A stretch of DNA of 64,000 bases, taken from contig RDNZ01000009.1 in NCBI GenBank assembly GCA_011364905.1, forward strand, positions 1 to 64,000. Direction: 5' to 3'. Shown here in pieces: positions 13,920-20,551 of this stretch. The translations under genes and the position numbers were made by a program. Below the pieces are notes generated by a model. It did no database searches. It was given only the letters and a program-made list of their open reading frames with translations, and was not told where the DNA came from. Position 1 is the stretch's first letter. Each line of letters opens with the position of its first letter. This DNA is from Candidatus Thorarchaeota archaeon (GTDB lineage: Archaea > Asgardarchaeota > Thorarchaeia > Thorarchaeales > Thorarchaeaceae).

Positions 13920-14036
13920 ATTAGCATCAATATGGTGGTATTTGATATCTCTATATCACTTGTTGGGTAGTGATTACAATACCTTAAATGCGTCAAGACA
14001 TGAAATAGAACCGTAAGGCCAAACTAGGTGGAATCA

Positions 14037-14702
14037 ATGGGCTTTCTGAGTGGAAAGAAAAAAGTCGATGCAGAACGCGGAATTCTTGAAATGAAAGGCA
14101 CTATGAATGCCTTGACACTAAGGATTCGCAGCCTTGAAACTAGAATGGTTGAGGAGCAAAAGTCTGCAAAGGAGGCAATGTCCAAAGGGAGTCGTTCTGT
14201 GGCACGGTCCCACCTTGGTATTGTTGTAGACCTTGAGAATCGAAAGTCTCGATATCAGCAACAGTTCCTTACTCTAGAAACCGCGCTCCTTAATCTAGAA
14301 GAAGCCAAAACTCAGTCTGAAGTTTTACGTGCCTTCACTATCGCGAACGATGCACTAACTGAAGCACGTTCAATGCTGCGGCCAGAAGAGATTCAGACTC
14401 AACTGGACAAGCTGTCTGAATCATTCGAGCATATTTCCATCGCAGGCGAACTGCTATCCGAAGACTTGTCTGGATCCGACTCCACAGTCGAGGATGAAGA
14501 ACGGATTGACCGTCAGCTTCAGGCTATGGAGGCCGAGGTCCTGCTCGAAAAAGAAGGGGTTTTGCCTCCATTAGAGCGCGAGGGAACACTTCCTGCGAAG
14601 ACTGGCAAAAGTGAGAGTTCAGATGAAAAACGAATTGATGAGCTACTTGCGGACCTTGAGAAAGAAGCCCAAGAGGAGAGAGCTCGAGAGAAAGAGAGCT
14701 AA
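14037..14702 (+). CDS. Snf7-family (ESCRT-III, Vps20/32/60-like) protein
   Basis: MGF..GKKK N-terminus, long helical hairpin (A..AM.KG.R..AR..L; LE....NLE.A....EVL.A), acidic C-terminal half; SD aggtg before ATG 14037. Confidence 0.8.
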   Translation: MGFLSGKKKVDAERGILEMKGTMNALTLRIRSLETRMVEEQKSAKEAMSKGSRSVARSHLGIVVDLENRKSRYQQQFLTLETALLNLEEAKTQSEVLRAFTIANDALTEARSMLRPEEIQTQLDKLSESFEHISIAGELLSEDLSGSDSTVEDEERIDRQLQAMEAEVLLEKEGVLPPLEREGTLPAKTGKSESSDEKRIDELLADLEKEAQEERAREKES

Positions 14703-16689: not shown

Positions 16690-17880
16690 ATGGGCGAGCT
16701 AAAACGAAAGACCTTACCGTTCACATCACTAGTAGGTTTGGAACGACTTAAGCTGGCTCTAATCCTAAACGGCATAAACCCACAGATTGGTGGAGTGCTC
16801 ATCTCAGGGCCAAAAGGAACTGGCAAGACCACTGTGGTTCGAGCACTGGCTGATTTGCTTCCTGAGGTGGAGGCCGTTGTGGGATGTAGATTTGGATGCA
16901 ATCCCAATAATCATGATTTTCTGTGTGCTGATTGTAGATCCACAATTGAATCGGGAAAGAAACTCAAGTCTGAGTCTAGAAAGATGCGTGTCATCAATCT
17001 CCCGCTCTCTACTACAGAAGATCGTTTGATTGGGGCTCTAGACATAGAACGCGTCTTACAAGAAGGAATTCAAGCACTTCGACCAGGAATACTTGCAGAA
17101 GCCAATCAAAATGTTCTCTATGTTGATGAGGTGAATCTATTACCTGACCATTTAGTTGACGATCTCTTAGATGCGGCAGCAACAAAGATCAATGTGATTG
17201 AACGTGAGGGAATATCGGTTTCTCATCCCTCCGATTTTGTTCTAATTGGAACAATGAATCCTGAGGAAGGAGAACTAAGACCGCAGCTCCTAGATCGATT
17301 TCCTCTTCATGTTGCAGTTAGTGGTCATCACTCGATTGATGATAGAATGCAACTCGTAAGGCGAAACCTCGCCTTTGAAGAAGACCCTGACAAATTCAGA
17401 GCTACCTGGGAGGAAAAACAGGTCGAGCTTCGTAATCAGATAATTCAAGCGAAAGAACTGCTGAGGGATGTGGTCCTTCCTGACTCTCATCTCAGAGCTA
17501 TTGCAATGGCTTGCGACGCTCTTGAAGTCGATGGTGTTCGACCTGACATCATCATCAGCAAGGCTGCAATCACTAATGCCGCTTTGGAAGGAAGAACAGA
17601 GGTTTCGCTAGAAGATATGAAAGTCGCCTCGCAACTTGTACTCAGTCATAGAACACGTCGAGGCGGACTATTGGAACCGCCTCTTCCAGATGATGTGGAC
17701 AAAGCCATTACAAAAGCAGCTGAGGTTGCTCAGAGAACAGAACGCCGGAAATCCCCCACAGAGGTTCCGGAGGAAGACGATAAGTCCGGACCAAGATTGA
17801 GCGGCGGAGGTTTTGGTAGAGGAAATAGGTTTGCCACATCTGGCAGACAGGACGGCAAAAAAAAACTCCGAAAGGAGTAA
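16690..17880 (+). CDS. ChlI/BchI-type chelatase AAA+ ATPase (5' part of a probable frameshifted chlD-like gene)
   Basis: [41 protein letters not shown]. Confidence 0.92.
17857..17878 (+). promoter_or_regulatory. Putative -1 frameshift/slippage site (A9 run plus GAAA tetraloop hairpin)
   Basis: GGC AAA AAA AAA CTC CGA AAG GAG TAA; the -1 frame is open from 17829 to 19355; actcc-gaaa-ggagt hairpin. Confidence 0.65.
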
Positions 17881-17924
17881 GAAATCCTAGGGGTGACCCA
17901 ATCAAAGGAACCATCTGCGCTATT

Positions 17925-19355
17925 ATGATGGTAGTAGTATTCATCTGGTTTGCTTGGGTTTTCGTTAGTCCCATAAATTGGCTATTTGGGACCTACTATC
18001 TTCAATTTCCAACAGCTCCAGCATTAATAATTGACACAATAGTTATTGCTCCTGCAATTTGGTTCTTAGTACGAAAGTGGCTTGAAGTTATGACGCGCAG
18101 AACCAGTGGTCCAGCGGCTGGTATCGACACAGTTGAACCGGGTGGGGGACCACCAGAGGCAGGTGATGAATGGGGTCTGGCCACAAGACCATACTCTCCT
18201 CAGACTCCTGATATGATTTCAGGTCCAAAATCGGAAATCAGGGATGCTCCATTTGGACTTGATGATGGCTTTTTTGTAAAGCTACCTGATATTGACGCAG
18301 GTGAGGAGCTTTTCGACCGCGAGAAACTGAAGACACGAGCCATGATTCGTGCCAGAGTTTCATCTGGCGGGTGGGTCAAAAAGAGAGTGAGCTCAAGAGC
18401 TGTAGGGTCTCTGAAATCCTCAGACACATTGAAACATGGCCGGCCTGTTCGTTCTAGAATTCCTAGTCGCGAAATCAGCAACATACATGTTCCGTCAACG
18501 GTGATGGCTGCAATCGCACGAACCGGCAAAACCTCCGGAGGACCGATCAAGATCATAAAGGAGGATCTCCGCGAGAGCGTGTTCACGGGAAGAACTCCTT
18601 TGACGATTATCCTTGTGATAGATGTTAGTCTCTCAATGAAGGGGAGTATGGAACAAGTGAGAGCTTTTCTTGAACGAGTAGAAAGCGAAACACGGGGATC
18701 CAAAGATCGGACGGGTATTATTGCTTTCAAAGACAGTGGAGCTGTAGAGATACAAGCTCCTACTACGAATTGGAATAAGATATATCGTGCATTAGGCCGA
18801 CTGAGGATTTCGGGGCTCACACCTCTTGCTGAGGCTTTGAAGAAATCCCTGGAAACCATTCGCAGAGAGCGGATGCGAAATAGTGAAGTGGAACCTCTTG
18901 TCATTCTCATTTCTGACTTCTCCCCGAACATTCCTCTTGCCCAATCAGCAGGTCCAGGACATGAACAGTATACTCCTGTACAGGACCTAGTCCGTGCAGC
19001 TCGGTTGGTCAGGAAAGCGAAGGTTAGATTAGCAGCAGTTAATGTTGATCCTGAACAATCAAAGTGGCCTAGATTTCTGAAACGTCCTTATCATGAAGCC
19101 TTAGAACTTGCGGCCATGTTAAGGACGAGAAAGGAAGGACTGAATGACCCAATTGAAACGATTCTAATGGTGGATGAGTTTCGAAAGACATTTGGCGCAT
19201 ATCTCATAGCCCGAGCAGCTGGTGGGCATGCCTACCTCTCTCGTGAGCTTCTAAAAGAAACATCAATACTTGGCACACTACTTTCTTCAAGTCTTTCTAG
19301 AAGTCGTTTGCGTGAAGATGAATTGCGTCAGGTTGAAGCATATCTCCCACAATAG
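17925..19355 (+). CDS. ChlD-like VWA-domain protein preceded by two TM helices (-1 frame continuation of the AAA+ gene)
   Basis: MIDAS DVSLSM, D..GII.F, GLTPLAEAL, LISD; frame open upstream to 17829 across the A9 run. Confidence 0.85.
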   Translation: MMVVVFIWFAWVFVSPINWLFGTYYLQFPTAPALIIDTIVIAPAIWFLVRKWLEVMTRRTSGPAAGIDTVEPGGGPPEAGDEWGLATRPYSPQTPDMISGPKSEIRDAPFGLDDGFFVKLPDIDAGEELFDREKLKTRAMIRARVSSGGWVKKRVSSRAVGSLKSSDTLKHGRPVRSRIPSREISNIHVPSTVMAAIARTGKTSGGPIKIIKEDLRESVFTGRTPLTIILVIDVSLSMKGSMEQVRAFLERVESETRGSKDRTGIIAFKDSGAVEIQAPTTNWNKIYRALGRLRISGLTPLAEALKKSLETIRRERMRNSEVEPLVILISDFSPNIPLAQSAGPGHEQYTPVQDLVRAARLVRKAKVRLAAVNVDPEQSKWPRFLKRPYHEALELAAMLRTRKEGLNDPIETILMVDEFRKTFGAYLIARAAGGHAYLSRELLKETSILGTLLSSSLSRSRLREDELRQVEAYLPQ

Positions 19356-19543
19356 TAACATAAGCCAGTGCCTCTCTCGATTATGTTATTAGCATGCATT
19401 CTGTTTCAAAAATGCGCACATGGTCAATTCAATGACTGGTGTCATAGTGAGCGAGGAGAGCCCAGTACTGGGTTGCTATGAATCTGCTTTTCATGCATCA
19501 GTCACAGGTTATGTGCGCACCTTTCATTGAGGTGGAGTTTTCA

Positions 19544-20551
19544 ATGTTACCTGGAAAAATACCTCCGGACGTCCTTCAAACTCTGGTGTTTACGAAACTG
19601 GGAATTTCTGACCCGGATGTCTTGCTAGGACCTAGACTTGGCGAAGACGCTTCAGTGATTAATATAGGTGACAAGGCTATACTTGCCGCGACAGATCCTA
19701 TAACTGGTTCAGTAGCAGATGTTGGTTGGCTCGCCGTCCATGTCAATGCAAATGACATCGCGGCTTTTGGTGTTCGTCCACGGTGGTTCTTAGCCTCCAT
19801 TATGCTCCCTGAAAACTCAACTACTCAACAGCTTGAACGGATCATGAAACAGATTGATGATGCGGCTCAGAAATTGGCAATAGCCGTCGCCGGAGGTCAC
19901 TCAGAGATTACAATAGGTATTGACAGACCAATAGTAGTTGGTTTCATGCTGGGTGTTACAGATCTAGGGAATTATGTCACATCATCTGGGGCAAAACCCG
20001 GAAACTCGATAATCGTGACTAAGTCGATAGCGCAAGAGGGTTCTGCAATTCTAGCTACTGAAGGAAGAAACTTCCTCACACCAAAGATTGGAGCAAATCT
20101 AGTTGCTAGAGCAAAAGCATTGAGAGAAAACATTAGTGTAGTATCAGAGGGACTAGCGGCATACGAAACTGGCTATGTGACTGCAATGCACGACCCAACT
20201 GAGGGTGGTCTCTCTGGAGGTCTGCATGAAATTTGTGATGCAAGTAGGGTTGGTTTTGAGATTTATCAAGATGCTATACCGATAGATGAATCGTCTAGAA
20301 CCATTTGTGAAGTTCTGGACATCAATGCGATGGAGTTGATCAGTAGCGGCAGTATGGTCATCTGCTGCAACAACAAACACGCTACTGAAGTTGTGAACAC
20401 GATTCAGTCACGCGGGATATCTGCCAATATTATTGGCAAAATCGTGAAAGATTCCAACCGCAGACTGTTGATAACCGACTCAGATGGTATCACACTTCAG
20501 CGGCCTAAAACAGACTCATTGTGGGCCGCATTCAAGAAACTCAATCCTTGA
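19544..20551 (+). CDS. AIR synthase/HypE-like (PurM superfamily) protein
   Basis: GEDAS, TDPIT, VHVNANDIA, GGHSE, AMHDPTEGG; SD gaggtgg before ATG 19544. Confidence 0.88.
   Translation: MLPGKIPPDVLQTLVFTKLGISDPDVLLGPRLGEDASVINIGDKAILAATDPITGSVADVGWLAVHVNANDIAAFGVRPRWFLASIMLPENSTTQQLERIMKQIDDAAQKLAIAVAGGHSEITIGIDRPIVVGFMLGVTDLGNYVTSSGAKPGNSIIVTKSIAQEGSAILATEGRNFLTPKIGANLVARAKALRENISVVSEGLAAYETGYVTAMHDPTEGGLSGGLHEICDASRVGFEIYQDAIPIDESSRTICEVLDINAMELISSGSMVICCNNKHATEVVNTIQSRGISANIIGKIVKDSNRRLLITDSDGITLQRPKTDSLWAAFKKLNP

Follow-up and report, generated by a model that had tools for sequence, protein, structure and literature searches.

Within a 64,000-nucleotide (nt) stretch of a Candidatus Thorarchaeota genome (GenBank assembly GCA_011364905.1, contig RDNZ01000009.1, positions 1 to 64,000 of the forward strand; "the window" hereafter denotes this entire stretch), positions 16690 to 19355 carry a chlD-type gene that is very likely recoded at a poly-A run, yielding from one locus both a soluble AAA+ ATPase and a membrane-anchored AAA-TM-TM-vWA protein, in which the same ATPase is followed by two transmembrane (TM) helices and a vWA domain. 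An initial annotation of the sequence had proposed these two products, and the proposal is now supported by comparative evidence comprising a conserved run, a conserved frame break, protein-level constraint in the shifted frame and relatives fused in frame. That −1 frameshifting occurs at poly-A sites in chlD genes was taken there as established and is indeed published (PMC3711429; PMC9227772); what is unusual here is the membrane anchor together with the missing chelatase partner.

The gene consists of two overlapping open reading frames (ORFs), arranged as follows.

16690-17880 (+): ORF1 in the zero frame, 396 amino acids (aa), a ChlI/BchI-type AAA+ ATPase and the short product
16807-16830 (+): Walker A motif of ORF1 (GPKGTGKT), intact
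17113-17130 (+): Walker B motif of ORF1 (VLYVDE), intact
17829-17880 (+): overlap window open in both frames, bounded by a −1-frame TAG at 17826-17828 and the zero-frame TAA at 17878-17880
17857-17865 (+): putative slippery run of nine A's (A9), read as A_AAA_AAA in the zero frame, the proposed site of a −1 shift or of the insertion of one A
17865-19355 (+): segment of the long product that is read in the −1 frame, 496 aa to the stop
17866-17924 (+): conserved basic peptide in the −1 frame, 5′ of the first ATG, with no ATG, GTG or TTG in that frame
17925-19355 (+): ORF2 as annotated, 476 aa, shifted by −1 against the ORF1 frame

ORF1 ends in GGC AAA AAA AAA CTC CGA AAG GAG TAA, its stop lying 12 nt (four codons) past the A9 run, and its tail is acidic and then Gly/Arg-rich before the terminal GKKKLRKE. 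The −1 frame stays open over 17829-19355, and because the TAG closes it upstream, the overlap window with A9 inside is the sole passage between the frames. Joining ORF1 residues 1-392 to the −1-frame part gives a predicted protein of 888 aa. The coordinates first reported for the run, the open −1 frame and the overlap all hold, as does the placement of the annotated ATG 17925 inside the first membrane helix, whose hydrophobic core spans 17913-17975. An A9 run by itself does not exceed chance expectation in the 64-kb window (one observed versus 1.9 expected); what makes it significant is where it lies and that it is conserved.

First, the two ORFs resemble the halves of a known protein. ORF1 matches the BchI-ChlI profile TIGR02030 at 3.5e-113 and the solved ChlI structure 8osf (PDB) at 1.9e-93, and the ATPase part of the structural model described below aligns with BchI/ChlI at TM-scores of 0.86-0.91 and 43-46% identity (Foldseek). 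ORF2 supplies a vWA domain with a metal-ion-dependent adhesion site (MIDAS), whose best match among solved structures is the vWA domain of BchD (2x31, 8.6e-5).

18447-19076 (+): vWA domain with MIDAS (PF13519 6.4e-13, PF00092 3.4e-10, PF05762 2.9e-6)
18621-18635, within 18810-18827 and within 18903-18920 (+): parts of the MIDAS motif, namely DxSxS, Thr and Asp, respectively

The profile TIGR02442, which describes a fused AAA-vWA "putative cobaltochelatase" of 641 positions, is itself split over the two ORFs, with positions 2-342 in ORF1 and 400-618 in ORF2; ORF1 and ORF2 are therefore halves of one chlD-type gene. Scored separately, the two pieces remain below the curated cut-offs of the chelatase profiles, with 454 bits (ORF1) and 98 bits (ORF2) versus 779 for TIGR02442, and 251 and 60 versus 499.5 for TIGR02031. 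The MoxR-class profiles also fall below their cut-offs on the ATPase (AAA_3, 0.0025, 18.2 bits vs 27; bpMoxR, 4.2e-5, 23.2 bits vs 27). A genome search found no second ChlI-like gene in the organism's own genome, and since that genome holds a single one, ORF1 is its only source of a small subunit.

Second, the run and the frame break are kept throughout a family. Orthologs were collected from the organism's own genus and from the whole class, and the junction statistics refer to 63 readable junctions of one Thorarchaeota family, in which the gene occurs in 72 of the 85 other genomes and in 15 of 17 genera, at 55-87% identity over ORF2. A −1 shift is needed at 57 of these junctions, four are in frame and two need a +1 shift. 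A run of 8-11 A's stands at the same position in 62 of the 63, mostly as A9, at some loci as A10 or A11 followed by G (that is, A_AAA_AAG) and once as A8. The zero-frame stop 12 nt past the run is retained in most orthologs, and many genera have a −1-frame TAA that reaches into the beginning of the run (GGTAAAAAAAAA), so that the shift window, bounded by the run and the ORF1 stop, is only ~21 nt long. At the sole junction without the usual run (L083; G066:C37), the first run is interrupted (AAAAAGAAA) and an A7 run abutting the ORF1 stop is kept, both runs being present in its sister L080 (G065:C1); to judge from these two sequences, the shift site in the L083 lineage appears to have moved by ~15 nt. 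The initial annotation had pointed to Asgard orthologs as the place to look for a conserved run and frame break, and equally for signs to the contrary, namely orthologs in frame or without the run and with a conserved start for the vWA gene; the counts above (run at 62 of 63, −1 break at 57 of 63) came out in favor of recoding.

The six junctions that depart from the −1 state (four with one A more, one with one A fewer, and one with a base lost beside the run) are what DNA-level phase variation would lead one to expect, with run length changing at replication and cells being either split (ATPase only) or fused, such that no slippage during expression is needed. A parallel exists in the Asgard family f18 (L099-L106; G155, G163, G166, G168, G170, G171, G173), whose TM-less chlD-like genes of ~805 aa contain an A10/A11 run at the boundary between ATPase and linker and are split in the −1 frame in four assemblies and in frame in three; across these sequences, the run length looks variable between species. 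Nonetheless, 57 of 63 independent assemblies of the Thorarchaeota family share one −1 state, unlike free toggling, and the vWA ORF, which would be silent in that state, is under purifying selection in all species. Moreover, the four in-frame loci (L018, L059, L072 and L096), whose runs are exactly one A longer than those of their nearest frameshifted relatives, do not form lineages and are scattered tips within the frameshifted clade of the tree. Phase variation is thus improbable as a replacement for slippage at the level of expression, alongside which it could coexist.

Third, the coding pattern around the junction indicates that the second ORF is probably entered by slippage and not at a start of its own. 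Within the genus, codon periodicity follows the ORF1 frame 5′ of the run and switches to the ORF2 frame at the run, and the 15 codons that separate ATG 17925 from the ORF1 stop show diversities of 0.11, 0.07 and 0.53 at positions 1, 2 and 3 of the ORF2 frame. Across the family, the ten codons of the peptide (I/V)RNPRGDPIK show the same gradation (0.25/0.16/0.57), and from the upstream stop as far as this peptide and the KGTIC motif, 43 of 59 split loci offer no ATG, GTG or TTG in the ORF2 frame. A conserved peptide that lacks a start codon is therefore reached by a change of frame. The competing proposition of two separate genes, with ORF2 starting at ATG 17925/17928 to make a membrane-anchored, BatA-like vWA protein and the run merely encoding lysines, can draw on the fact that all orthologs have an ATG at one or other of two neighboring positions, on the frequent encoding of AAA+ ATPases and vWA proteins by separate adjoining genes (PMC5898192), and on the public annotation of ORF2 as a separate "vWA domain-containing protein". 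It would leave without explanation, however, the protein-level constraint in the ORF2 frame on ~16 codons 5′ of the ATGs, the three Lys codons that are AAA and never AAG in 62 of 63 lineages where nearby third positions vary freely, and the existence of in-frame fused relatives, and its product would start within helix 1 and fall short of half of that helix. Nor is ATG 17925 itself conserved, being ATA in L010 and GTA in L016. We consider separate genes a quite remote prospect.

Assembly or sequencing error at the homopolymer, the real gene being a single in-frame ORF, is extremely improbable: homopolymers are error-prone and four assemblies are in frame, but the same out-of-frame state recurs in 57 assemblies from different projects and assemblers, the zero-frame stop past the run is kept in most of them, and a −1-frame stop lies immediately ahead of the run or within its first bases in many genera. 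Because of this pattern of run length and frame over the 63 junctions, such error is ruled out as a general explanation. The two +1 loci, L091 (G063:C3; one A fewer, A8) and L013 (G017:C75; a one-base deletion just 5′ of A9), represent either assembly errors or cases rescued by deletion-type slippage. Finally, that a former chelatase subunit gene is decaying here as a pseudogene, as the failure to find CobN/ChlH and ALAD in the family might suggest, is hardly credible for two intact ORFs conserved at 55-87% identity over 15 genera, with Walker A/B and MIDAS kept and third-position variation several-fold above that at first and second positions.

Fourth, the shifted part would begin with a membrane hairpin, as the initial annotation had read from the translation (two hydrophobic helices, then a linker and a MIDAS vWA domain).

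17898-17984 (+): predicted helix 1, hydrophobic core 17913-17975, preceded by a Lys/Arg-rich stretch; residues 407-435 in the AlphaFold2 model; conserved across the family
18015-18098 (+): predicted helix 2, hydrophobic core 18018-18071, with a conserved Asp inside and followed by RKW...RR; residues 446-473 in the AlphaFold2 model; conserved
18099-18446 (+): linker rich in Pro, Gly and acidic residues, modeled at low confidence (predicted local distance difference test, pLDDT, <50 at model residues 480-532 and 557-580)

The AlphaFold2 model was built on the naturally in-frame ortholog L018 with 82 aligned rows (mean pLDDT 80.7); in it, the ATPase is separated from the vWA domain by both helices (pLDDT 87-94), which have low-confidence linkers on either side. 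Helix 1 is strongly hydrophobic (summed Hessa scale −3.3), and the loop between the two hydrophobic segments is uncharged. Considering the hydrophobicity, charge distribution and structure prediction, the helix pair presumably inserts into the membrane. Because Lys/Arg residues occupy both flanks and the loop carries no charge, we infer that both ends of the hairpin are cytoplasmic, with the ATPase and the vWA domain in the cytoplasm; this is the only arrangement that would let the ATPase meet the vWA domain.

Taken together, the following scheme can be envisaged. Standard decoding of 16690-17880 would give the 396-aa soluble ChlI-like AAA+ ATPase with intact Walker A/B motifs. Some rounds of expression would see the frame move back one base at 17857-17865, because lysine tRNAs slip in tandem by −1 on A_AAA_AAA, because RNA polymerase adds one A, or through both, and would give the 888-aa product comprising the same ATPase, the basic peptide, the two membrane helices, the disordered linker and the MIDAS vWA domain. 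By analogy to ChlI/ChlD and CobS/CobT, the short form may build the active ring, which the long form would tether to the membrane, its vWA/MIDAS domain coupling the ring to a client. What the sequences show is the conserved run and frame break, a −1 frame that is coding from the run on, the conserved helices, and a family in which neither CobN/ChlH nor ALAD was found; the ratio of the two products, insertion into the membrane, the assembly of the ring and its target are inferred.

As to what drives the shift, poly-A runs of other chlD genes gave 63, 40 and 10% frameshifting for 11, 9 and 7 A's in Escherichia coli reporters (PMC3711429), and the A_AAA_AAR site in chlD genes is under purifying selection (2016 review, PMC5009743). 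Seven A's are enough for tandem tRNA slippage, yet the runs here are kept at nine or more. A conserved downstream stimulatory RNA element was considered and rejected: RNAalifold found no consensus structure in the 70 nt past the run among the 63 aligned sequences (mean single-fold z-score −0.9), and the 4-bp hairpin CTCC-GAAA-GGAG, which the initial annotation had noticed immediately after the run, is present in this sequence but in only eight of the 63 orthologs, and does not qualify as a conserved stimulator. Slippage dependent on the homopolymer itself fits the locus because the runs have at least nine A's, the in-frame and +1 variants keep the run, and no stimulator was found.

The anchor and the run can also be followed separately among relatives. 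In a library of 1.8 billion proteins, in-frame AAA, 2-4 TM, vWA proteins (735-1060 aa) are common among the closest representatives, and come from Thorarchaeota, Promethearchaeota, Hodarchaeota, Bathyarchaeota and Thermoprotei; one such homolog, P0003, has 880 aa. In f12, the closest sister family, 19 of 19 genomes carry the gene in frame, at 856-892 aa, and the one member inspected (G035, L033) lacks a long A run at its junction. In the tree, the Thorarchaeota family forms a clade (support 100) that is sister to the anchored, run-less f12 clade. As judged by the sequences compared, the predicted anchor (as in f12) and the putative slippery run (as in the TM-less f18) occur separately elsewhere, and the Thorarchaeota family combines both. 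Another in-frame homolog, of 900 aa with approximately four membrane helices (L035:3-1140; G033:C96), is preceded by URO-D-family and B12-binding-domain genes resembling a methyltransferase-like pair. A search of the ESM Atlas gave no clusters beyond the protein's own from Thorarchaeota and generic vWA ones.

Several of these observations weigh against the scheme of a recoded gene with a membrane-anchored long form. The absence of a conserved downstream RNA structure is unusual for efficient ribosomal −1 frameshifting. Helix 1 contains two neighboring codons of which one is an ATG in every ortholog, so that additional internal initiation may occur. Helix 2, with its conserved Asp, is of no more than marginal hydrophobicity. 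Lastly, the short form is not obligatory for proteins of this kind, as f12 is run-less and a separate ChlI gene was not found in the one f12 genome checked.

What, then, might such a machine act upon? The initial annotation had seen no cobN or chlH in the window, which proved correct and extends to the family: CobN/ChlH (PF02514) was found in none of 86 family genomes, 23 of them at least 90% complete, with control genomes matched, and the tetrapyrrole marker ALAD (PF00490) in none of 41 genomes (G000 and 40 relatives at least 90% complete), with 11 of 14 controls positive. With neither CobN/ChlH nor ALAD found in the family, the locus does not encode a tetrapyrrole chelatase motor. Compared with the medium subunits of class I chelatases, it has their domain order and lacks the large subunit, the pathway and scores above the profile cut-offs. 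The alternative suggestion of a MoxR/vWA-like membrane-remodeling role has not fared well, in that the ATPase is ChlI-type, not MoxR-type, and the role itself is pure speculation. We tentatively propose, at somewhat less than an even chance, that the two products could constitute a tetrapyrrole-independent, membrane-tethered AAA+/vWA machine in archaea, with A-run slippage setting the ratio of free to anchored forms, that acts on a membrane protein or a metal center. If this were true, the ChlI/ChlD-type motor would have a second use, and the family would represent a functional class of its own and not a stray chelatase subunit. Membership in a defense system was also considered and set aside, PADLOC having given nothing relevant.

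Among known systems, the closest is the fs-chlD cluster (Antonov et al. 2013, PMC3711429; Atkins et al. 2016, PMC5009743; Kuznetsov et al. 2022, PMC9227772), with which the locus shares every defining feature at the sequence level: a ChlI-like AAA+ ORF overlapping a −1-frame vWA ORF, a conserved A_AAA_AAR/poly-A site at the end of the ATPase module under purifying selection, and fused in-frame homologs. Some published carriers are likewise devoid of chlH/cobN and tetrapyrrole pathways, and for these "stage 1" genomes the authors state that the function is unknown (PMC9227772). Different here are the conserved two-helix membrane hairpin with which the shifted part opens, the length of the long product (~890 aa versus the ~640 positions of TIGR02442) and the Asgard (Thorarchaeota) host, as published archaeal cases of chlD frameshifting are inferred for Methanococcales only (PMC8211752). 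The ChlI/ChlD (BchI/BchD) and CobS/CobT motors have the same order of AAA+, linker and MIDAS vWA, with the ATPase here being ChlI-like and the vWA domain closest to that of BchD; in contrast to them, the linker here harbors a membrane hairpin, and no large subunit or ALAD was found in the family. The MoxR-type AAA+/vWA pairs (BatA/BatB, RavA-ViaA, NorQ-NorD and CoxD-CoxE) similarly couple a ring to a MIDAS vWA adaptor and have membrane or metal-center clients, membrane-anchored vWA partners being known from BatA/B, and ORF2 has a weak VWA_CoxE match (PF05762, 2.9e-6). They differ in that the ATPase here is ChlI-type and is joined to the vWA domain in one polypeptide, putatively through recoding.

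A mechanistic parallel is offered by dnaX, which encodes tau and gamma through a −1 frameshift on A_AAA_AAG in E. coli and through transcriptional slippage on an A run in Thermus. There too, slippage at an A run gives a full-length and a truncated AAA+ protein with a shared ATPase and a differing C-terminal interaction module. The shift produces the short form in dnaX and would produce the long form here, where the extra module would change the location of the protein between cytosol and membrane.

To our knowledge, recoding has been recognized in few cellular genes of archaea. Here, recoding appears to be kept across a whole Asgard family, and the shift, beyond adding a domain, would determine the state of the ATPase, free or membrane-bound. 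The family also presents a "chelatase" motor under selection where no large subunit or ALAD was found, and offers a concrete handle on the question raised by the "stage 1" genomes, namely the role of ChlI/ChlD pairs without ChlH/CobN (PMC9227772). A literature search, which did not include the 2020 article in Mol Biol Evol that PMC9227772 cites on chlD frameshifting, found no report of a transmembrane anchor in a ChlD-like protein, of this gene in Asgard archaea or of a link between Thorarchaeota and ChlD. There is, in addition, a lesson for annotation: in the public record, what is probably one recoded gene stands as two, an "AAA family ATPase" and a "vWA domain-containing protein", the second starting inside a membrane helix.

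Around the locus, a divergent thrC lies upstream and an AIR-synthase-like gene downstream, an arrangement that is syntenic across the family, the latter gene standing directly downstream in all family loci long enough to show it.

19478-20551 (+): AIR-synthase-related gene (PurM superfamily), 122 nt downstream, scoring below the HypE, ThiL and SelD cut-offs

Neither neighbor stands beside the distant, anchored in-frame homologs of three other Asgard families, and no function was read from gene context. Elsewhere in the window, a gene of the Snf7 (ESCRT-III) family lies at 14028-14702 (+; PF03357, 2.9e-16), as expected for an Asgard archaeon.

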